The notes: generated from the letters alone by a model not told the origin. A DNA stretch of 26,908 nucleotides from a virus (IMGVR_UViG_3300009602_000068:1-26908), one strand, 5' to 3'. Counted from the stretch's first letter, positions 1 to 26,537 are shown. Made by a program: numbers and translations.

Positions 1-290
1 GGCGTAACGCTCACGCTGCCAAGGGTCACGCCTGGGGCAACGCTAGAAGCCACAGCTACAGCTGCTGCTGGCGTAACGGTGACGCTGCCAAGGGTCACGC
101 CTGGGGCAACGCTAGAAGCGATAGCTACAGCTGCTGCTGGCGTAACGGTGACGCTGCCAAGGGTCACGCCTGGGGCAACGCTAGAAGCCACAGCAACGGC
201 TGCGGCTGGCGTAACGGTGACGCTGCCAAGGGTCACGCCTGGGGCAACACTAGAAGCCACAGCTACAGCCGGGTCTGGCGTCACGGTAAC
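1..290. repeat. 69-bp coding tandem repeat (4 full units plus a partial; 23-aa unit TPAAAVAVASSVAPGVTLGSVTV)
   Basis: Units start at 1, 70, 139 and 208 (ggcgtaacggtgacgctgccaagggtcacgcctggggcaacgctagaagc...), with a degenerate start at 277. Confidence 0.95.
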
Positions 291-356
291 ATCTACAGCA
301 GCAGCAGCTGCAGCTGTGCTAAATGGTAGACTTGAATAAGGAGCTACCGAAAACAT
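1..356 (-). CDS. Ala/Val/Thr-rich tandem-repeat protein, probable fibre/virion protein (runs off the left edge; absent from ORF track)
   Basis: ATG at 356 preceded by AAGGAG just after the stop of the 368..868 gene. Reads MFSVAPYSSLPFSTAAAAAAVDVTVTPDPAVAVASSVAPGVTLGSVTVTPAAAVAVASSVAPGVTLGSV... with no stop to position 1. Same strand as its neighbours. Confidence 0.8.
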   Translation of the reverse strand, partial: MFSVAPYSSLPFSTAAAAAAVDVTVTPDPAVAVASSVAPGVTLGSVTVTPAAAVAVASSVAPGVTLGSVTVTPAAAVAIASSVAPGVTLGSVTVTPAAAVAVASSVAPGVTLGSVSVT

Positions 357-2498: not shown

Positions 2499-3168
2499 AG
2501 TTCTGGTAATTGGCGATACTCACTGTCCCGCAATGCGGGACGATTACGTTGACTTTTTGCGTGCCCAGCGTAAGGCCTGGAAAACCAATGTAACGGTTCA
2601 TATCGGTGACCTTGTAGACTGGAATATGCTAAGTTTTCATGAGCGAGACCCCGCAAGCGACTCTGCCGGGCTGGAATATAAAAAAGCATTGGCACAGGTT
2701 AAGACACTGACTAAGGCTTTTCCAAAGGCCGTTTGCATGACTGGCAATCACGACTGCCTGCCACAAAGACAAGCGGTAGCTAATCAAATACCGTCTATGT
2801 TAATCAAGGCACCCGGCAAGATATGGGAAACGCCCGGTTGGAATTGGCGGCCCCGCTATAGCACCTATGATATCGACGGCGTTAAGTATTGCCACGGCGA
2901 CAGAGGCAAAGGCGGCATTATGGCAGGCCTCAAAAATGCCAAAGAAAACTTCCACAGCTGGGTGCAAGGCCATACGCACTCGCAAGCGGGCGTCTGGTGG
3001 TTTGCTAACGAGTCCGCGTGTGTCTTTGGCATGAATACCGGAACGGGCGTAGACCAAAAGAAGGGTATGTTTTACGGACAAAAGTACAACGCCCGCAGCA
3101 TCGTTGGCTGTGGCGTTGTACTAGAAGGGGGCAAAGAAGGGGCCTTCTTTGAGCCTATGCAATTGTGA
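2491..3168 (+). CDS. calcineurin-like metallophosphoesterase
   Basis: All five motifs present: GDTH, GDLVD, GNHD, HGD and GHTH. Confidence 0.9.
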   Translation: MARVLVIGDTHCPAMRDDYVDFLRAQRKAWKTNVTVHIGDLVDWNMLSFHERDPASDSAGLEYKKALAQVKTLTKAFPKAVCMTGNHDCLPQRQAVANQIPSMLIKAPGKIWETPGWNWRPRYSTYDIDGVKYCHGDRGKGGIMAGLKNAKENFHSWVQGHTHSQAGVWWFANESACVFGMNTGTGVDQKKGMFYGQKYNARSIVGCGVVLEGGKEGAFFEPMQL

Positions 3169-3355
3169 CAAAAGCGTTAAGCCCTACAGCTGCTGCCATC
3201 TTTAAGACTGTATCCCATGTAGTGTCTGTTTTCTCGTTTTCGGCATGACTCCATGCCGCCTGGGTTATGCCTGCCTTATCAGCTGCCGCCTGTTGCGTCA
3301 TGCCTGCGGCTAGTCGGTAGCCTGTAATCTTTTTTACTGCTTGGCGTTTTGTCAT
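3155..3355 (-). CDS. XRE/Cro-family helix-turn-helix protein
   Basis: RLAAGMTQQAAADKAGITQAAWSHAEN is a canonical HTH_3 pattern. Start overlaps the PolX stop (TAATG). Confidence 0.88.
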   Translation of the reverse strand: MTKRQAVKKITGYRLAAGMTQQAAADKAGITQAAWSHAENEKTDTTWDTVLKMAAAVGLNAFVTIA

Positions 3356-3885
3356 TACATGCCCCAGTGTAACACGGTGTCGGTACGGTCAGTTGGTTCA
3401 ACGAATTCTAACCCCAGGGCTGCGAATATGCTTTTCTCTTGCGTTGCCTTACAGATACGTTCGTCACGGTTTTCACGTTCCCATAGACCATACTGATTCA
3501 ATAAGTACCCGCGACGTTTGGCAATGCAACGCATCATAATGTTAAACTGCCCGCTACCAGTGCAGAACAATAGAGCCGCGCCCATTGACTGGGGCAGCAC
3601 GTCAAAAACGTTTATCTGCACGCCCTCGAATTCTCCGAACCGCTTAGCGCGATCAGGGCGAGTAGAGCACCACCCGAACAACGCGCCAAGCTGCTGATTA
3701 AGCTGCTCTTGGCTTCTGCGGCTGCTGCAACGAACAGCCATATCTATGTCCCCTACGGTTTCCTTTTCGCGTCTGATGCTGCCGCCTATGACACAGCGTA
3801 AGCCGCTGTTAGCTTGCAGCTGGTCGATTAAACGGGCGGCTATCGCTTCTGCTTTTTCTCTGGGGATTCGTTTGCCTTTACTCAT
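3355..3885 (-). CDS. polX: minimal DNA polymerase X family protein (palm and thumb only)
   Basis: GGSIRREKETVGDIDMAV nucleotidyltransferase motif, GAALLFCTGS..FN..MR..AKRRGYLLNQYGL and EKSIFAALGLEFVEP.DR are PolX/Pol beta signatures. Confidence 0.9.
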   Translation of the reverse strand: MSKGKRIPREKAEAIAARLIDQLQANSGLRCVIGGSIRREKETVGDIDMAVRCSSRRSQEQLNQQLGALFGWCSTRPDRAKRFGEFEGVQINVFDVLPQSMGAALLFCTGSGQFNIMMRCIAKRRGYLLNQYGLWERENRDERICKATQEKSIFAALGLEFVEPTDRTDTVLHWGM

Positions 3886-4267
3886 TGGTTTGCCTTTCTG
3901 TTTCCAATATTACTGCCGGTAATCCCTTTAACACTTTCAGCTCGCTGCCGCGTCGCGGCTCAATGCCCTCCTCCACCATTCTCACGATAGAGTCGACTTG
4001 CCAGAGTGCTGGAAGCTCGTAACACCACGAACAATAATCAGCTAGCGTCATAGCCGCGACAACTCTAGACATATCGCCCGCCGTAACCCGTCGCCGGTAG
4101 TCTTTAACAACGTCGTCCGGCGCGTCGGCGTGCCTTTCTATTAAATACTTGTTTCCGTCTTCGTCTTCGCCGTCTTTTAGTCGGCGGAATATAAGCCCGT
4201 TTTCGTCTTCTGGGTATGTTCCAAGACGTTCTATAGCTGTTCGCAATTGTTTGTAACTTCTGGTCAT
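3878..4267 (-). CDS. hypothetical early protein (start revised to MTRSYKQ at 4267)
   Basis: ATG directly behind the repeated CAGGAGATCGAGACC leader. Confidence 0.7.
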   Translation of the reverse strand: MTRSYKQLRTAIERLGTYPEDENGLIFRRLKDGEDEDGNKYLIERHADAPDDVVKDYRRRVTAGDMSRVVAAMTLADYCSWCYELPALWQVDSIVRMVEEGIEPRRGSELKVLKGLPAVILETERQTNE

Positions 4268-4286
4268 GGTCTCGATCTCCTGTTGG

Positions 4287-4592
4287 TTAGTGGTGTTGGT
4301 TAGACAACGCGGCAGCATGACGCGCCGTTGCGTATTGTTCCAGTTCTTCGGTCAGGAGCAGCCGTTGCTTCCAAGATGAACCGAGCAAACAGCGATAAAA
4401 GAACTTGCGTTGTTTAACCATGAAACGCCATCTCTTTTTAAGGTCTTTTTCGACTTTAAAATATTCCCTGATTCGCGGCCCGTACCGCTGGTCCCAAAGT
4501 TTAGAGCCTTGATTGCCTGTAATCCATTTAGGGAAAACTGTACGAATATGAAAATCGTCAGGCGGCTGTAATATTCGTTTGCCTTTACTCAT
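4287..4592 (-). CDS. hypothetical basic early protein (start revised to MSKGKRILQ at 4592)
   Basis: ATG directly behind the repeated leader. First 20 nt identical to the polX 5' end. Confidence 0.65.
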   Translation of the reverse strand: MSKGKRILQPPDDFHIRTVFPKWITGNQGSKLWDQRYGPRIREYFKVEKDLKKRWRFMVKQRKFFYRCLLGSSWKQRLLLTEELEQYATARHAAALSNQHH

Positions 4593-4620
4593 GGTCTCGA
4601 TCTCCTGTTGGTTAGGGGTT

Positions 4621-4968
4621 TTAAGATTGCAAAAAATACTCGCGGTTAACCGTTCCGTCTGCGCGCAACCATTGCCGCGCGCCGCCAATGCCTAGGATTC
4701 CTTGCCGCGTAGCAACAGCCATAACCTGAACGTCGGCGGGTATTTGGTCCGGGTCAGCATGGTCGATAAGTGTAAACTTATGGCTACCATAACTGTTCGC
4801 GATATACCTTGGCTGACCATCTCCAACAGTCGCCAAAGACTCTTTACAAAACGCCTCTAATGCTTGGTAGTAAGGTTCGCGGTCTGTCATTGTTTTTGCC
4901 TTTCGGTTAGGGTTGCTGGTTAGTTGGTCGGCTTCTATGCGTTGTTGCGTTTTCGTTACTTTACTCAT
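4621..4968 (-). CDS. hypothetical early protein with two in-frame leader-associated starts (4968 MSKVTK; 4890 MTDREP)
   Basis: Type A leader before ATG 4968 and type B leader before in-frame ATG 4890. Confidence 0.65.
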   Translation of the reverse strand: MSKVTKTQQRIEADQLTSNPNRKAKTMTDREPYYQALEAFCKESLATVGDGQPRYIANSYGSHKFTLIDHADPDQIPADVQVMAVATRQGILGIGGARQWLRADGTVNREYFLQS

Positions 4969-4994
4969 GGTCTCGATCTCCAAAAAAAGGGGGG

Positions 4995-5192
4995 TTATTC
5001 GTTAATTTTAAGGTCGTCTAAGTCTGGGCAAATCGTTTCGTTCGGCGCTATTACAATCGCGCCTTTTTTAACGTGGTGTTTCACCCACTGGCGCGCCGTT
5101 TCTAGTAGTTCGGTGCTTCGCGTGATTTCTTCGACGTTAAAAAGTCGGCTAACGGCGTGGTCGACTGTTACGAAAGTTAAGTCGTTGGGCAT
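4995..5192 (-). CDS. hypothetical early protein (65 aa)
   Basis: ATG behind leader variant CAGGAGACCGAGACC. Confidence 0.7.
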   Translation of the reverse strand: MPNDLTFVTVDHAVSRLFNVEEITRSTELLETARQWVKHHVKKGAIVIAPNETICPDLDDLKINE

Positions 5193-5243
5193 GGTCTCGG
5201 TCTCCTGTGTTTTTGTTTAGTGCTTGTTTTTTGCTTATCATGT

Positions 5244-5531
5244 TTACGCAATATCCAGGCTAGCCACTTCACTAGAAAACGCGGCGATGATTTCAAAAGC
5301 AGCTTTGGCAAAATGCTCACTATACGCCCCTTGCATCTTGCCCACAGCCCTTGCCCCCTGGCAATCTGTGGCAGAATCAAAAACAAAAGAGAACTTCTGC
5401 CATTTCGTTTTCTGGCCGCTCTTGATAGCCACCTTGCAATTGAGGAAGCCACCATTGAAACTAGCTATGATTCGCTCATCATTTAGATGCTCTATTAACT
5501 GTTTTTGTAACGCTGTCCGATTTTTACTCAT
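5244..5531 (-). CDS. hypothetical early protein (95 aa)
   Basis: ATG behind leader CCAGGAGATCGAGACC. Confidence 0.7.
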   Translation of the reverse strand: MSKNRTALQKQLIEHLNDERIIASFNGGFLNCKVAIKSGQKTKWQKFSFVFDSATDCQGARAVGKMQGAYSEHFAKAAFEIIAAFSSEVASLDIA

Positions 5532-5561
5532 GGTCTCGATCTCCTGGGTTAGGGGTGTTGG

Positions 5562-5873
5562 TTAGCTGCTTAGCTGCCCGTTGCTATCAATCGTTAACGA
5601 TTGGCCAATAAAATGGTCTTTGCTTTTTTTCGCTGCGTTAAAGATTGCAATCTTCGCTTCCCTCTTAGTGCGAACTATCGCTACTTCCGTACCGTTCGCT
5701 AGATAAACAATAAAACCAGTGACGTGATAAGCGCTGTCTTTGGTACGCATTGAACAGCGCCCCAAACGCCCTAGCTTTTGGCTGCTTCCCTCGCCTTTTA
5801 GACTTATGGTGGCGAACCAGGGCAGAAGGTTTTCATCGGATTCGCTGATAACGATTCTTTTTTTTCCGTACAT
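5562..5873 (-). CDS. hypothetical early protein, first of the array (start likely MYGKK at 5873; alternative ATG at 5906)
   Basis: ATG behind type B leader CTAACCGAAAGGCAAAAACC, immediately downstream of a promoter. Confidence 0.65.
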   Translation of the reverse strand: MYGKKRIVISESDENLLPWFATISLKGEGSSQKLGRLGRCSMRTKDSAYHVTGFIVYLANGTEVAIVRTKREAKIAIFNAAKKSKDHFIGQSLTIDSNGQLSS

Positions 5874-5916
5874 GGTTTTTGCCTTTCGGTTAGTGTTGTG
5901 TCTCATAACTTCACTT

Positions 5917-5944
5917 ATTGTAACAACATCGGCTACCCATGCAA
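5917..5944 (-). promoter_or_regulatory. sigma70-type promoter driving the small-gene array
   Basis: TTGCAT(5944-5939)-16bp-TACAAT(5922-5917) with extended -10 TGn and an AT-rich upstream tract. Confidence 0.65.
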
Positions 5945-6062
5945 GATAAATCTACTTATTATGAGAAAAAAACCCAAAGTTTTCACACTACAAAACAAGG
6001 GGTTTTGTTGAGATGCCGAGAATTGGCCCGGTTTTTGTTCGGACAAACCGACAGATAGCCCG

Positions 6063-6635
6063 TTAGTTACCAGGGGGCTTCTCTGCTTCCATAATCCGTT
6101 TATGCCTGCGCCGCAGCTGGGCGGGCGTCATACTTGGCCCCGTGTGGTAATGGCCCAGCGGCACAGCTGCCGGGGGCTGCGTGTGATACCGTCGCCAGTA
6201 TTCACAGATAAGCAAAGCGTCGGCTATGGCGTGCGTGATTTTAAGGTCGGGCCATAGCTCCTGGGCCTTGGCTTTGTGCTGGTTCTTCTTCTTCGTCTTG
6301 GTTACTTCTTTTGACGTAATCAAGCCTAGCGGCTGCTGCCATTTACGAGGTAAGACGCGCTCTAAGGGGATGCCATGACAGACTACGGCAGACTCTGCGT
6401 TACCATAAGCCCGGCCAAACGTGAAACAACTAGCCACGCCCTGCCCTGGGCGACTGGCTACCTTTTCAAGTGCGCAGCTTTTTAGCTTGCTAAGGCTTGC
6501 CAGTTCTGCGAGTAGGTCTGATAAGTCAGTAAGGGTAGCGGGCATTTTTACGGCTTCAGTCTTTCGCTGTTGCCCGTCGTCTAGCGTCCAAGCAATACCG
6601 CCGTTCACGCCTGGGTCTATGCCGATGTAAAGCAT
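6063..6635 (-). CDS. RuvC-like Holliday junction resolvase (phage type)
   Basis: YIGIDPG..GGIA, ALEKV..RPGQGVAS.F.FG..YG, PRKWQ and ADALLI motifs. Confidence 0.88.
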   Translation of the reverse strand: MLYIGIDPGVNGGIAWTLDDGQQRKTEAVKMPATLTDLSDLLAELASLSKLKSCALEKVASRPGQGVASCFTFGRAYGNAESAVVCHGIPLERVLPRKWQQPLGLITSKEVTKTKKKNQHKAKAQELWPDLKITHAIADALLICEYWRRYHTQPPAAVPLGHYHTGPSMTPAQLRRRHKRIMEAEKPPGN

Positions 6636-7612
6636 TAGAAAAGCACCTTCTGAGTAAATCGTTTTACTGCTAACTGTAGATATTCCTCGTTTAACTCAAT
6701 GCCGATAAACTTGCAGCCGTTTTTCTGGGCGACTGCTCCCGTGGTGCCGCTACCTAGAAACGGGTCTAGAACCGTTCCACCTTCAGGGCAGCCTGCCATG
6801 ATGCAAGGTTCTATTAGCTTGGGTGGAAAGGTGGCAAAGTGTGCGCCTGGGTAGGGTGCGGTTGGAATTGTCCAGACGCTTCGCCGGTTGCGGGTTTCAG
6901 GGCCAATAACTACACTTCCTTTTTCGTTTCCGCTTGGCAGCCTGTTAGCCGCTGCTGCGCGGCTTGCCTTTTTCTGATTACCCCACTTTCCTTGAACCTG
7001 CCCAACGCGGTTAATGTCTGCCGCTTCTTTTATGGCGTCTGCATCGTAGTGATACTTGGCTGCCTTAGTTAGGAGAAAGATATATTCATGGGCTTTTGTG
7101 CAGCGATCTGTAACGCTTTCGGGCATTGGGTTGGGTTTGTACCAGATAATATCTTGACGCAGCCACCAGCCGTCTGCTTGCAGGGCAAAGGCTACCCGCC
7201 AGGGTATACCGCAAAGGTCTTTAGGTTTTAGGCCGGGGACTAGCGTGTTGCGGCCTTTTACCCGCCCGCGCACTTTATCGCCCGGCGTTGTCTTGCGACC
7301 ATCGGTGCGAACGTCGACGGCTCCACCGCCGCCGCTGCTGCTGTTGGCGTAACAATCTCCGTAGTTGATCCATAACGTACCGTCTGTTCTAAGCACGCGC
7401 CGCACTTCGCTAAACACTTCCACCATTTTTGATACGTGTTGTTCTGGTGTTTCTTCTAGTCCTAACTGGCCGTCTGTCCCATAATCCCGCAGTCCCCAGT
7501 AGGGCGGGCTAGTCACGACACAATGCACGCTCTCGGCTGGTAGCTCTTTGAGTACCTGCAAGCAGTCGCCGTGATATAGCTCTATATCTTGGCTTGTATG
7601 GTAGGCTTTCAA
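6635..7612 (-). CDS. beta-class DNA amino-methyltransferase (N4-C/N6-A)
   Basis: VTSPPYWGLRDY catalytic motif N-terminal to VLDPFLGSGTT SAM-binding motif, plus HFATFPPKL. Confidence 0.93.
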   Translation of the reverse strand: MKAYHTSQDIELYHGDCLQVLKELPAESVHCVVTSPPYWGLRDYGTDGQLGLEETPEQHVSKMVEVFSEVRRVLRTDGTLWINYGDCYANSSSGGGGAVDVRTDGRKTTPGDKVRGRVKGRNTLVPGLKPKDLCGIPWRVAFALQADGWWLRQDIIWYKPNPMPESVTDRCTKAHEYIFLLTKAAKYHYDADAIKEAADINRVGQVQGKWGNQKKASRAAAANRLPSGNEKGSVVIGPETRNRRSVWTIPTAPYPGAHFATFPPKLIEPCIMAGCPEGGTVLDPFLGSGTTGAVAQKNGCKFIGIELNEEYLQLAVKRFTQKVLF

Positions 7613-8637: not shown

Positions 8638-9276
8638 TTACGCTAGGTAGGGAATACGCCCGCTATTAAAGAATCTCTTTATCACTGTTTTTTGTGCCAT
8701 CTGTTGCCAGCTGTCAGCACGCCAGCCACCCTTTACGTGGTCTTTAACGTGCTGGTCTAGCTGTGCCTTGCTTAGGCACTCGAAAGCCTTGGTATCACAG
8801 GGCAGCGTAGCCACGGCGTAGACGTAACGCACCGCGCCCTGCTCTCGCTGCGGGTCGTCGCTTGGCTGGTGCTCAATATTCTCATTGCCGCCCTGGTAGT
8901 AGGTAAAAATATCATCTCCAAAAACTGTGCGGGCGTACATATCTTTAAGCTGCCCGTTGCGCTTAGCCAGTGCTATCAGCCCTTTGTAGCCAAGATCGCA
9001 TTTAAGCACCCCGGAACGTGGCACAAAGTAGAATAAATCCTGCCCAGGTTCTAGGCCGGTTGTTGCTGCTTCGTAGACAGCAGACAGCAAAGATTGCGGG
9101 GCACACTTTAAAAGGTCTGGCTGTGCTTCAAAGATGCCGCAGATACCGCCCGCCCATTGCTCAAAGTGCACGCCAGCAGGAAGCCGCCCTTTTACGTCGT
9201 CATAGTAGCGAGACAGCAGCCCGTCTCTAAACTTCGCCAGGGTTGTGACTGGTTGTTGTGTGGTTGCTGTGCTCAT
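8638..9276 (-). CDS. recT: RecT-family single-strand annealing recombinase
   Basis: LLKCAPQSLL.AV..AA..GLEP...YFVP...LGYKGLIALA.R.G, YVYAVA.L and MAQKTVIKR motifs. Confidence 0.9.
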   Translation of the reverse strand: MSTATTQQPVTTLAKFRDGLLSRYYDDVKGRLPAGVHFEQWAGGICGIFEAQPDLLKCAPQSLLSAVYEAATTGLEPGQDLFYFVPRSGVLKCDLGYKGLIALAKRNGQLKDMYARTVFGDDIFTYYQGGNENIEHQPSDDPQREQGAVRYVYAVATLPCDTKAFECLSKAQLDQHVKDHVKGGWRADSWQQMAQKTVIKRFFNSGRIPYLA

Positions 9277-9285
9277 ATTTCCCCC

Positions 9286-9558
9286 TTAAAAAAGCCGTTG
9301 TTGGCTACCCGGTAACAGTAAACGATATTCAAACATTCTGTGCCCTACGCTAGACAGGCGTTTTTCAATTGTGAAACCATGCGCCCGCAGCGCCCGCAGG
9401 CGTCGTAGCCCTTCGCTGCCGCCTGCCTCTAGTCTTATCCTGTCTGCGGTGTGCCATAAGCCGTCACACAGCAGGCGGTAGACCCGTTGTTCTGCTGCGC
9501 TAAAATCTGCTAAGTCTCTGGTTGTCAGCAGTTCCACAATCGCCCCCTTTTTTGCCAA
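9286..9558 (-). CDS. winged-helix DNA-binding protein (putative)
   Basis: RVYRLL.DG.WHT...I....GG.EGLRRLR.LR..G..IEKR.....FEYRL pattern. Confidence 0.6.
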   Translation of the reverse strand: MAKKGAIVELLTTRDLADFSAAEQRVYRLLCDGLWHTADRIRLEAGGSEGLRRLRALRAHGFTIEKRLSSVGHRMFEYRLLLPGSQQRLF

Positions 9559-9806
9559 AGGCTTTTAAACCATGCCGCGCCGTGCTGCTGGGCGTCTAGT
9601 TCGTTTTGCCGCTGACTGCGGGTTAGCTCACATTTTAAGCACGTGCGCCGCCTCAAGATTAAGCCGCCGCAGATAAAGCACCGTTTAGCCGTTCGCTGTA
9701 TCACTTTTGTAAAACCTCCAACCAATAAGAAGCCCTGCGAACAGGGACGAAAAAAAACAGCTGGCGACTGTATCAATAACAAACACGCCAACCCAGAATA
9801 AGACAC
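9525..9806 (-). CDS. hypothetical protein with CxxC-x9-CxxC motif
   Basis: CFIC...CLKC; fills the gap between co-oriented genes. Start uncertain. Confidence 0.4.
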   Translation of the reverse strand: MSYSGLACLLLIQSPAVFFRPCSQGFLLVGGFTKVIQRTAKRCFICGGLILRRRTCLKCELTRSQRQNELDAQQHGAAWFKSLWQKRGRLWNC

Positions 9807-10030
9807 TAACCGCCGCCGCTGTTGCTAGGTTGTTTACGCTCATCTATAAAAGCCTCCAAGTCTGCGACAGGCACGCGGTAAATTTTATATGTACCGCTGC
9901 CGATATTAACCACCGCCAGCCTGCCCGCACCTATTAACCGCCGCACCGTACTGACAGACACTTGTAGCCTGTCGGCTACCTGTCGAATGCGCAAGAGAGC
10001 AGGTTCTAGCCCTGTTGAGTCAGTCGCCAT
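9806..10030 (-). CDS. excisionase-like HTH_17 DNA-binding protein (start revised to 10030)
   Basis: LLRIRQVADRLQVSVSTVRRLI..GRL....IG....YRV...DLEAFI; GAAGGGGGA RBS before ATG 10030. Confidence 0.85.
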   Translation of the reverse strand: MATDSTGLEPALLRIRQVADRLQVSVSTVRRLIGAGRLAVVNIGSGTYKIYRVPVADLEAFIDERKQPSNSGGG

Positions 10031-10074
10031 TATTCCCCCTTCCGCTTTAATCAAAAGTGTTCAACTTATGGCAA

Positions 10075-10102
10075 ATCATACAGAAGTAGATAATAGCGTC
10101 AA
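10075..10102 (-). promoter_or_regulatory. sigma70-type promoter for the replication operon
   Basis: TTGACG(10102-10097)-16bp-TATGAT(10080-10075). Confidence 0.7.
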
Positions 10103-10818: not shown

Positions 10819-11079
10819 TCAAATACCGTCGCCCTCACGCTGCAAACCTTTTTCAACGGTACTGCTTAAACACTCTATTAGGTGGGTTTGTTTCGTTAGG
10901 GCTTCTGTCTGGTGCTCCTGATGTTCTTTAGTGTGCTTTATAAAGTCAATGTGCTCATTAACTACCGCGCGGCCTAGAGGGGCGAAGTATCGGCAGACGC
11001 GCCACAGGAACAACAGTAAGATAAGCACGATTGCAGCGGGAAAACCTACGGCGTTTATTAGTTCTGCGGCCTGTTGCAT
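10819..11079 (-). CDS. holin-like single-TM membrane protein
   Basis: ELINAVGFPAAIVLILLLFLW TM segment plus coiled-coil tail, BhlA/YvrJ-like architecture, in lysis position. Confidence 0.55.
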   Translation of the reverse strand: MQQAAELINAVGFPAAIVLILLLFLWRVCRYFAPLGRAVVNEHIDFIKHTKEHQEHQTEALTKQTHLIECLSSTVEKGLQREGDGI

Positions 11080-11330
11080 TGTTTGCCTTTTCTAAACAGC
11101 CTCTTTAATAGTTGCCGACGTGACGGCGGCAAGTGCGGAGCGGGTAACAACTCACCGCCGCCCGTCGGCGCGTGCACCGGAGGAAGCGCACGCTTTTTCT
11201 CTAGCTCTATTGTTGCAAAACAATAAGAACTTGCTACCGCAATTCTAGCGCGGGCTTTGTCAAGCCCCCCGGCTGGCTGAGTCTGGCAACCTGCGCAAGT
11301 CAGCAGGCATAAAAGAAGTAATCTTTTCAC
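11058..11330 (-). CDS. putative lipoprotein (spanin-like position; start revised to GTG 11330)
   Basis: GTGA overlap with the protease stop. MKRLLLLCLLTCAG-C signal/lipobox and Pro-rich C-terminus. Confidence 0.6.
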   Translation of the reverse strand: MKRLLLLCLLTCAGCQTQPAGGLDKARARIAVASSYCFATIELEKKRALPPVHAPTGGGELLPAPHLPPSRRQLLKRLFRKGKQCNRPQN

Positions 11331-24896: not shown

Positions 24897-26537
24897 TTAG
24901 GCCAATTCTATCTCGTTGTTTTCGTAATATGAAAGCGGCCCCTGCTCACTGATAGCCCTACTAAGAGCCATCACAGCCGCGATTATGCCGTCGATTTTCT
25001 TAGGGTTTGCGTTTGGCGGTTTGACTGGTCGGTAGTTGTTGTTGTTGTCGCTCTTGGTTTGCGTGTGCAAGGCTTGCCAAGTTAGCACCGGGTGGCGCGG
25101 GTGCGTTAAGTTCTGGTTTAATACTAGCCTTTCCATTTCGGCAGTCGGGGCGGCAAAGTTGCTAATTGTCTGCTTGAATTGTGTACGCGGGATATAGTGT
25201 TCTAACTCTAGCCGCTGGGTTAGTTCTTCTGCACTCCACGGGTCGTAAACTAGTTCTACAATGTCGAACTGTTCAGATAGTTCAGCCACCTTTTTCTCTA
25301 TCACAGCATAATCTAAAACGTTGCCCGCTGTTAATTGCAAAAAGCCTCTATCGTGCCACTGTTGATAACTGGCTTGGTTCGCATGATCTTTAACAGTTTC
25401 CTCTGGTAGAAAGAAGTAAGGCAATAGCTTGTAGTTGTCGTCGTCCCTGAACACACAGACTATAGCGGTCATATCTCGCGTGCGGGACAAATCCAAACCA
25501 ACGAAGCAACGTTGCCCGGTTAAATCGGCTGCTGTGAAGTCGTCCCCGCACTTATCCCAGTCGGTTTTCCGTAGCCACGGGTTAGCGGCACTCTGCCAGA
25601 TGTTAAGCCGTAACTGCTTCCAGCTGGTAAAATCGGCGACGCTACGCTTAGCCCGCTTGTAGCTTGTCTCGAATTCTGCGCGTTTAATCGTTACGCCTAA
25701 CCCTGGGTTCGCCTTTTTCCAAGTTCCAACCTTGCCGCACTCGTGATCTGTTGCCGTCTGGGGTGCTGAATAGTTGATAAATAAGAATGAATCGTCGTAG
25801 ATCATGCCCTCAGAGACGGCCTGCCCATAGTCAAACTGTTTTTTGGCGTACCCTTCCGGGTTGTTTCCTGCTGTGCTGGCTTCAAATTGGAGCGGTTCAG
25901 AGCGACTCGCGCCCATATATTCAAGCACCCGCGCCAATCGCTCATCTACAACGTGCACTTCGTCAATGATTACAGAACCATTTAGCCCATGCTGGCCCCT
26001 GATGTTGTCCCCTGCCAGTACTTCGTAGGTGCTGCGGCTTAGCTCATGGTATATTCTGCCCGTTGCCTTGTTAATCTTTAGCTCTTTGGATAGTACCGGC
26101 GACTGTTCGACCATGTGCCTAGCGTGTGCGTGCATGATGCCCGCCTGCCTGCCGTCTTTAGCAGCTGAGAAAACCTTCTGCCCTGGTTCGCCGTCTGCGA
26201 TTAAAAGATACAGGCCCAGCATTGCACAGGTAGGGCTTTTTCCGTTCTTCTTTGGCACCCATAACCCGCAGCGGGTAAACCGTCTGACGTACCTATTCCA
26301 ATCTTTCGACCACTTCACCCAGCCGAACAGCCTGGAAAACAAATCTATTTGCCACTTCATTAGCTGCACTGGTTGCCCGGCGTATTCCCCTTCATAGAGC
26401 CGCAGGTGTTCTGTCATGAATTCGATTACATGCTCTACCCGCTGCGGGTCGTACAGGCAGCCGTCAGCCTTTGCGCGTTCATCGGCTGCGTCTTGAATCA
26501 TCCGGGCCGGGGGTTTTTTGGGTTTGTGGTTTGTCAT
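24897..26537 (-). CDS. terL: terminase large subunit
   Basis: Walker A VPKKNGKS, Walker B IIDEVH, STAG, nuclease GLDLS..RDMTA and KIDGIIA.VMA motifs. Confidence 0.96.
   Translation of the reverse strand: MTNHKPKKPPARMIQDAADERAKADGCLYDPQRVEHVIEFMTEHLRLYEGEYAGQPVQLMKWQIDLFSRLFGWVKWSKDWNRYVRRFTRCGLWVPKKNGKSPTCAMLGLYLLIADGEPGQKVFSAAKDGRQAGIMHAHARHMVEQSPVLSKELKINKATGRIYHELSRSTYEVLAGDNIRGQHGLNGSVIIDEVHVVDERLARVLEYMGASRSEPLQFEASTAGNNPEGYAKKQFDYGQAVSEGMIYDDSFLFINYSAPQTATDHECGKVGTWKKANPGLGVTIKRAEFETSYKRAKRSVADFTSWKQLRLNIWQSAANPWLRKTDWDKCGDDFTAADLTGQRCFVGLDLSRTRDMTAIVCVFRDDDNYKLLPYFFLPEETVKDHANQASYQQWHDRGFLQLTAGNVLDYAVIEKKVAELSEQFDIVELVYDPWSAEELTQRLELEHYIPRTQFKQTISNFAAPTAEMERLVLNQNLTHPRHPVLTWQALHTQTKSDNNNNYRPVKPPNANPKKIDGIIAAVMALSRAISEQGPLSYYENNEIELA

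Follow-up and report, generated by a model that had tools for sequence, protein, structure and literature searches.

Repeated stop-to-start leaders mark where relatives differ in a hypervariable row of small genes of an uncultured marine phage

Integron arrays consist of single small genes that lie in one direction behind one promoter; their recombination site often supplies a stop codon, attC folds into a hairpin and the integrase gene stands beside attI. In T4-type phages, small orphan genes are flanked by repeated intergenic regulatory units, the promoter early stem-loop elements (PeSL), each provided with a sigma-70-like promoter and a terminator stem-loop (PMC2839356, PMC4122927). The start-associated sequences and their extended forms (SAS/ESAS) of cluster K mycobacteriophages and cluster EF Microbacterium phages are asymmetric, over-conserved repeats found at the ribosome-site position of non-structural genes (PMC3203893, PMC7302621). 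The present analysis concerns a 2.1-kb array of small genes in the virus record IMGVR_UViG_3300009602_000068. The window, that is the whole stretch analysed, is one linear record of 26,908 bases, for which CheckV estimates a completeness of about 40%. This block is a hypervariable row of small genes, with stop-to-start leaders at the points of difference between relatives. The PeSL already illustrate the general principle, and the version described here is a variant built on the ribosome site.

Eight start codons of the array, all on the minus strand, are preceded by one of two repeated leaders, as had been proposed in an earlier note made from the sequence alone. Type A, GGAGAYCGAGACC-ATG, occurs five times (ATG at 5531, 5192, 4968, 4592 and 4267) and the type B core, GAAAGGCAAA, three times, upstream of the ATG at 5873, 4890 and 3885; neither type A nor GAAAGGCAAA has a further copy on either strand of the window. 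A second-order Markov model of the window, used for all chance expectations, predicts 3e-6 type A sites and 0.11 GAAAGGCAAA sites over the whole strand. The box CTAACC is observed eight times in the block against 0.59 expected. It lies ahead of five of the eight starts, three leaders being without it, and its part as the stop of the upstream gene is restricted to two cases (g1 and g5). The longest exact identity between any two leaders, 27 nt, is shared by those of 4592 and 4267, where the earlier note had counted 26. Neither leader is present at any of 38 other gene starts, some of which are the first start of an open reading frame (ORF) finder and not curated ones. The leaders are thereby confined to non-structural genes in this contig of about 40% completeness, and a generic Shine-Dalgarno ahead of all genes was rejected for it. 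The scan of the full contig also returned one near type B leader at 11079-11090, ahead of an 86-aa ORF outside the array. An assembly artefact was likewise rejected, since the contigs of independent runs X4, X7 and X8 jointly span all eight junctions at about 100% identity; junction bridging was compared in four of the 20 runs holding the window, and these three are not marked as possible sources.

These starts had been taken to belong to eight small unrelated genes. Six cargo genes, g1 to g6, correspond to this description, and the last member is a conserved PolX-like core gene. The ATG at 4968 is in frame with the ATG at 4890, with no stop between them, and the g4 homologues in two other clusters are mostly of 87-89 aa and mostly start at the position of 4890; the array therefore holds seven genes, not eight. 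The segment 4891..4981, whose 3' part matches the tail of gene gX in relatives, is likely the relic of a deleted cassette, to judge from its sequence.

Relatives came from 122 stretches found in a viral scan and 12 found in a metagenome scan, two of the latter being the window's own contig. They provided four other full alleles, L123, L130, L135 and L137, so that five alleles were compared. Viral scans with RuvC, PolX, the boxed leader and the promoter anchor returned only the L123 contig, plus L124. The cargo between promoter and PolX is g1-g6 in the window, gX in L123, gX-gY in L130, gZ-gX-gV in L135 and gX-gW in L137, which amounts to 6, 1, 2, 3 and 2 genes, 11 of them different. None of the six cargo proteins of the window matches the loci of the other alleles at E 0.001. 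The surroundings are far more stable: the 700 bases upstream are 95.7-100% identical in four alleles (65-66% in L137, which has an insertion there), the RecT, DnaD and RuvC proteins are 97-100% identical in relatives (RecT 98.6-100%), and the PolX-like gene is kept by all relatives, with 95.3-98.1% DNA identity among the five alleles.

Alignment of these relatives, the check advocated by the earlier note, places the limits of the exchanged segments in the leaders or in the first 20-26 coding bases, as its cassette proposal had anticipated. All four relatives leave the window sequence immediately past the first CTAACC. L123, L130 and L137 part immediately past the CTAACC behind gX, where L135 carries this tail in shortened form, and an exact 21 nt ahead of PolX, from CTAACC on, is common to these three alleles. 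On the basis of the shared gX tail, the divergence at CTAACC and the 21-nt PolX leader, L130 and L137 each correspond to L123 plus one cassette bounded by CTAACC boxes. Types A and B swap at the same position between alleles, and three leader forms are found ahead of PolX; the g2 leader of the window, with two changes, is also present there in L123, and a leader like that of g6 occupies this place in run X20. The first 26 nt of g2 are common to gW of L137, the two genes being otherwise different, and g5 and PolX begin with the same 20 nt from the ATG, which brackets the g5-g6 block. The g4 homologue P0025 continues into a different downstream gene. The changes seen within the phage group are gain, loss and replacement only.

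Four runs with a low share of the stretch, X14, X17, X19 and X20, were also compared. X14 holds pieces of the window's allele; in the three others the flanks are present and, within the block, mostly the leaders only. X19 matches L137. In X20 the gV tail is followed not by PolX, as in L135, but by a further gene: 238 letters of other sequence stand between two leaders, the second of which precedes PolX. X17 contains the spacer 5193..5243 and a 92% copy of g3, both with other neighbours, as well as two different junctions behind the gX tail at depths of 12.9 and 7.6, from which we infer that one sample holds alleles with and without a cassette. In L135 two leaders match exactly over 45 nt, a stretch that includes a variant missing from the same tails in other alleles. 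A variant of three bases in the spacer groups by genome, at p 0.003 if the gX leader is omitted and 0.05 if it is included; the lower value was obtained with ten leaders of type A (window, L130 and L135), and the test left out the type B leaders and those of L123 and L137, shared by descent. Identities of 27-45 nt together with genome-clustered variants suggest copying, and not selection alone.

The leaders are Shine-Dalgarno-containing, unstructured start regions. The cores AGGAG or GGAG in type A and (A)GAAAGG in type B are two registers of one 16S tail, whose end, GAUCACCUCCUUUCU, is present in 24 of 41 Planctomycetota genomes. With the Planctomycetota tail, for which the host assignment is weak, the mean duplex energy is -7.7 kcal/mol at the eight array starts versus -5.0 at 26 other ATG or GTG starts (p 0.006). 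The start regions of the array are also much less folded (-1.9 versus -7.1, p 2e-4). No hairpin was found at the leaders on either strand (five leaders against shuffles, z -0.3 to +1.7) and Rfam leaves them unmatched at E up to 1. Computed pairing and low structure thus agree with the proposed role of the leaders as shared translation signals. The type A 16-mer has one match each in just 9 of 201 Planctomycetota genomes, several of them within reading frames (reversed control, 3), and is therefore not a generic signal of that phylum, as far as a weak host guess allows; taken with the 38 other starts, this agrees with the view that the leader is not simply the extended Shine-Dalgarno of the host.

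The claim that one promoter heads the array holds as a likely one. A sigma-70-type site was recognised by eye at 5944-5917, and its two hexamers are conserved in all five alleles; the consensus promoter scan missed it and called a weaker neighbour at 5986-5958. No promoter-like site was called within the block (minus strand, 5950 to 3880), nor any terminator at the leaders on that strand. A single early promoter would drive the cargo, PolX and the helix-turn-helix (HTH) gene.

The array shares with integrons a row of single small genes behind one promoter and a repeat that often supplies the stop. It differs from them by the absence of an attC-like hairpin on either strand or in Rfam and by limits that are not confined to one base. 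No PF00589 match was found in the contig, which is incomplete, and RuvC lies upstream of the array. There is also a likeness with the PeSL, at which relatives gain, lose or replace genes and leave one chimeric unit (PMC2839356), and which similarly flank small orphan genes (PMC4122927). The unit here is nevertheless 20-45 nt long, from the stop through an A/C-rich spacer and the ribosome site to the start; the genome, of siphovirus type with RecT, is not that of a T4-type myovirus and holds a single block behind one likely promoter. Mini-circles formed by recombination between units are reported for the PeSL; the present array is known from assembled contigs alone. It works like PeSL shuffling but, having neither a promoter nor a hairpin per unit, is not a PeSL.

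The leaders resemble SAS/ESAS (PMC3203893, PMC7302621) by their asymmetry and their place a few bases ahead of the ATG, by their AGGAG or GAAAGG core with conservation that extends past it, by their ATG starts and by their upstream extension. SAS/ESAS are also rare in the putative host genomes; the type A 16-mer has one match each in 9 of 201 genomes of the Planctomycetota, a weak host candidate. The sequence is however neither GGGATAGGAGCCC of the cluster K mycobacteriophages nor GGGAAAGGACCCC of the cluster EF Microbacterium phages, and the upstream boxes are direct repeats without hairpin, whereas the cluster K extension is an inverted repeat. The leaders form one tight block, unlike SAS, which are spread over a genome arm, and gene exchange is seen here at the repeats, where the consulted part of PMC3203893 only proposed it. 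A RecT-family gene and traces of homology at exchanged borders recall the relaxed recombination of Rad52-like proteins, which use short diverged homology, of 23-27 bp for Red-beta, according to the portion of PMC3945230 at hand; the homologies here do not exceed this reported minimum, and each gene start contains one. A literature search on ribosome-site cassettes and planctomycete phages, outside of which most subscription papers lay, brought up no nearer parallel than PeSL and SAS.

Relatives keep the leaders and carry other genes between them, so that the leaders are likely recombination joints. The reading that we prefer, with a probability of about 0.7, is that strong translation leaders double as short-homology joints, probably for the RecT of the phage. 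Selection would have favoured the leaders because they give early accessory genes a strong start region. Being repeated, they would offer imperfect short homologies for annealing by RecT, which may add, drop or replace genes at these places. If two leaders annealed, whether within a genome or across relatives that infect the same cell, a chimeric leader would arise, and each product would keep a stop, a ribosome site and a start; it would thereby be expressed at once, and the leader would spread to the new gene.

Several observations weigh against this reading. In L123 and L130 the methylase slot (window 6635-7612, L123 8775-9041) holds an unrelated gene of 88 aa, exchanged at plain stop/start borders without leader; the methylases of L135 and L137 are of 86% and 79% identity. 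L137 has an insertion of about 820 bp after RuvC (about 5297-6120) and a diverged stretch of about 200 bp (1099-1268, excisionase-like gene of 62% identity), both also without leader. Selection for intact genes likewise places boundaries at gene borders. Several junctions have only 6-19 exact bases, under the Red-beta minimum, and no RecE-like exonuclease was identified among the 47 ORFs of the contig examined. Joints inside the array are absent from the four runs with the window's allele, in contigs that drop rare variants. Only five full alleles were found, and the clustering test drew on 10-12 leaders that are not independent.

Part of this evidence fits a rival scheme, in which the leaders are only optimised translation signals and the genes enter by illegitimate events and recombination in the flanks, selection setting the borders. 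Both cores match the Shine-Dalgarno, the leaders are unstructured, like leaders exist in phages without any detected shared protein, and swaps occur at plain gene borders nearby. Ribosome binding explains neither the identities of 27-45 nt nor the first 20-26 coding bases shared by unrelated genes, and it leaves the genome-specific spacer variants and the three leader forms ahead of PolX without a cause; this scheme is considered unlikely. A binding site for a phage or host regulator, for instance the HTH protein or an RNA-binding protein, through which the block would be co-regulated, with recombination as a by-product, is more improbable than any other explanation weighed here. Its merit is that the spacer between the Shine-Dalgarno core and the ATG is conserved beyond the needs of pairing, an argument made for SAS in the part of PMC3203893 consulted, and that the operon ends with an HTH gene. 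Leaders of two unlike types can nevertheless replace each other at one position, and the motif is not palindromic and has no Rfam match.

The box itself might be the crossover core of a site-specific recombinase acting on an integron-like array with hairpin-free sites. Inverse cores of integrons supply a stop codon, as CTAACC often does. The exact shared stretch is or ends at CTAACC between L123 and L130, between L123 and L137, and between the window and all relatives, although an 18-nt identity adjoins it in L130. No hairpin on either strand and no tyrosine recombinase in the contig of about 40% completeness accompany it, however; three of the eight window leaders have no box, and other limits coincide with the ATG or lie 20-26 nt inside genes. 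The same products, including apparent crossovers at a hexamer, would moreover result if annealing spanned the full imperfect repeat of 19-26 bases, so that a site-specific enzyme is not needed, and this alternative appears quite doubtful. Equally doubtful is a wider proposal in which CTAACC is the true crossover, marine and freshwater phages share a cassette pool, and PolX diversifies the cargo by templated insertions, of which the 24-nt terL copy in g1 would be an example. If true, it would imply a dedicated hairpin-free gene capture, with one common ribosome-site leader giving unrelated marine and freshwater lineages access to a single plug-in pool.

Under the preferred reading, with leaders as joints for RecT, the array would be a natural case in which the ribosome-binding region alone, with no promoter or hairpin, marks the points of accessory-gene exchange. 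It would bring comparative evidence for the role proposed for start-associated sequences in PMC3203893. From the junctions known in five alleles, the chimeric leaders and circles to be expected can be predicted, and the leaders can serve to locate hotspots of accessory genes in uncultured phages. The features of the locus are collected in Table 1.

Table 1. Coordinates of the array and of related features in the window
Feature	Position	Strand	Remark
RecT-family single-strand annealing protein, candidate recombinase	8638..9276	-	Pfam RecT, E 1.9e-27
RuvC-like resolvase, upstream flank of array	6063..6635	-	phrog_1770
Likely sigma-70-type promoter heading array	5917..5944	-	TTGCAT, 16 nt, TG-n-TACAAT; read by eye
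First leader, CTAACC box + type B; left limit of variable block	5874..5893	-	All four relatives diverge after CTAACC and carry type A here
Cargo g1, 103 aa, no assigned function	5562..5873	-	Homologue P0021, 85 aa
24-nt in-frame insertion in g1	5811..5834	-	Equals antisense strand of terL
Leader, two CTAACC boxes (first = g1 stop) + type A	5532..5565	-	
Cargo g2, 95 aa	5244..5531	-	
A/C-rich spacer + type A leader (ACC variant), without CTAACC	5193..5243	-	
Cargo g3, 65 aa	4995..5192	-	
Type A leader, ATG 4968, 26 codons through two CTAACC boxes + type B leader into g4	4891..4981	-	
Cargo g4, 89 aa	4621..4890	-	Homologues 83-98%
Leader, CTAACC + type A	4593..4615	-	27 nt identical to g6 leader
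Cargo g5, 101 aa	4287..4592	-	
Leader, two CTAACC boxes (second = g5 stop) + type A	4268..4303	-	
Cargo g6, 129 aa	3878..4267	-	End overlaps PolX type B leader and ATG
Type B leader of PolX; right limit of variable block	3886..3899	-	Type A here in all four relatives
PolX-like gene, fixed last member behind array	3355..3885	-	Pfam PF14791, PF14792
HTH regulator gene, coupled to PolX, probable transcript end	3155..3355	-	
terL stretch matching g1 insertion	26169..26192	+	

The 11 cargo proteins have no match under E 0.01 in Pfam and PHROGs, the cargo has none in PADLOC at E 0.01, and a PDB sequence search of g4 gave no match. The models of g4 and g6 have a predicted local distance difference test score (pLDDT) of 85.6 and 88.5, and g6 has eight distant homologues; both look like real folded proteins with homologues, judging from these models. 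The models have no Foldseek match at E 0.001 and reach a best Z of 4.0 and 4.8, which implies neither a new fold nor the absence of a family. The PolX-like protein is a stand-alone protein of 176 aa limited to the palm and thumb of DNA polymerase beta. It has 16 homologues, none of them named, and distant relatives at 21 viral loci of 30-40% identity, where the leader array is absent by a 9-mer scan.

The insertion in g1 is a perfect 24-nt inverted match to terL (E 1.8e-7) with unrelated flanks. A contig of run X7 bridges the insertion site, and the homologue P0021 is without exactly these eight codons as well as without a second block of 10 codons. The 24-nt block looks like a templated in-frame insertion by this sequence match, and a role of PolX in it is a matter of speculation. 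No source of the 10-codon block was found among the loci compared; a 20-nt match in a holin-like gene, itself unrelated, was put down to chance.

Like leaders are found in two other phage groups, one of high GC with eight loci sharing sequence (L025, L026, L034, L036, L058, L073, L091 and L093) and one with three (L127, L132 and L138). In the nine loci displayed, small genes follow A/C-rich, GGAG-containing leaders, in rows except in the short L127. L034 and L058 are 89-98% identical in shared blocks and their genes change at leaders and gene borders. The core proteins of the window have no match at E 1e-8 in either group (loci of at most 12 kb). In L073 the cargo includes ArdC, an anti-restriction protein (Pfam ArdcN), the row is followed by a Prim-Pol gene, and genes for an integrase and an AAA_24 protein lie upstream of it; by analogy only, this ArdC would support a counter-defence role.

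The window belongs to an uncultured marine tailed phage with a siphovirus-type genome, whose genes are almost all on the minus strand. It codes for terminase, portal, protease, HK97-type capsid and long-tail proteins, RecT, a DnaD-like protein, a methylase and RuvC; the lambda/HK97-like head genes, the long-tail genes and RecT do not describe a T4-type myovirus genome. Eleven runs hold at least half of the stretch, all of them marine metagenomes, and no RNA data set is among the listed runs that hold it. Comparison with GenBank phages gave only 23-nt chance matches. The capsid is 47% identical to a protein of a Gemmataceae assembly, the sole confirmed match among 396 candidates. The terminase has matches of 32-36% identity in 9 of 301 Planctomycetota genomes, no better than those of 34-37% with phages of gut Firmicutes and streptococci. 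Planctomycetota are thus a weak host assignment from sequence comparison. In L135, an element with two complementary arm pairs, pseudoknot-like by eye, lies at about 4866-4895 between the gZ stop and the next leader. The end of the window (1-345) cuts an Ala/Val/Thr/Pro-rich gene with 69-bp tandem repeats, of which L135 carries more copies (9234-10096).

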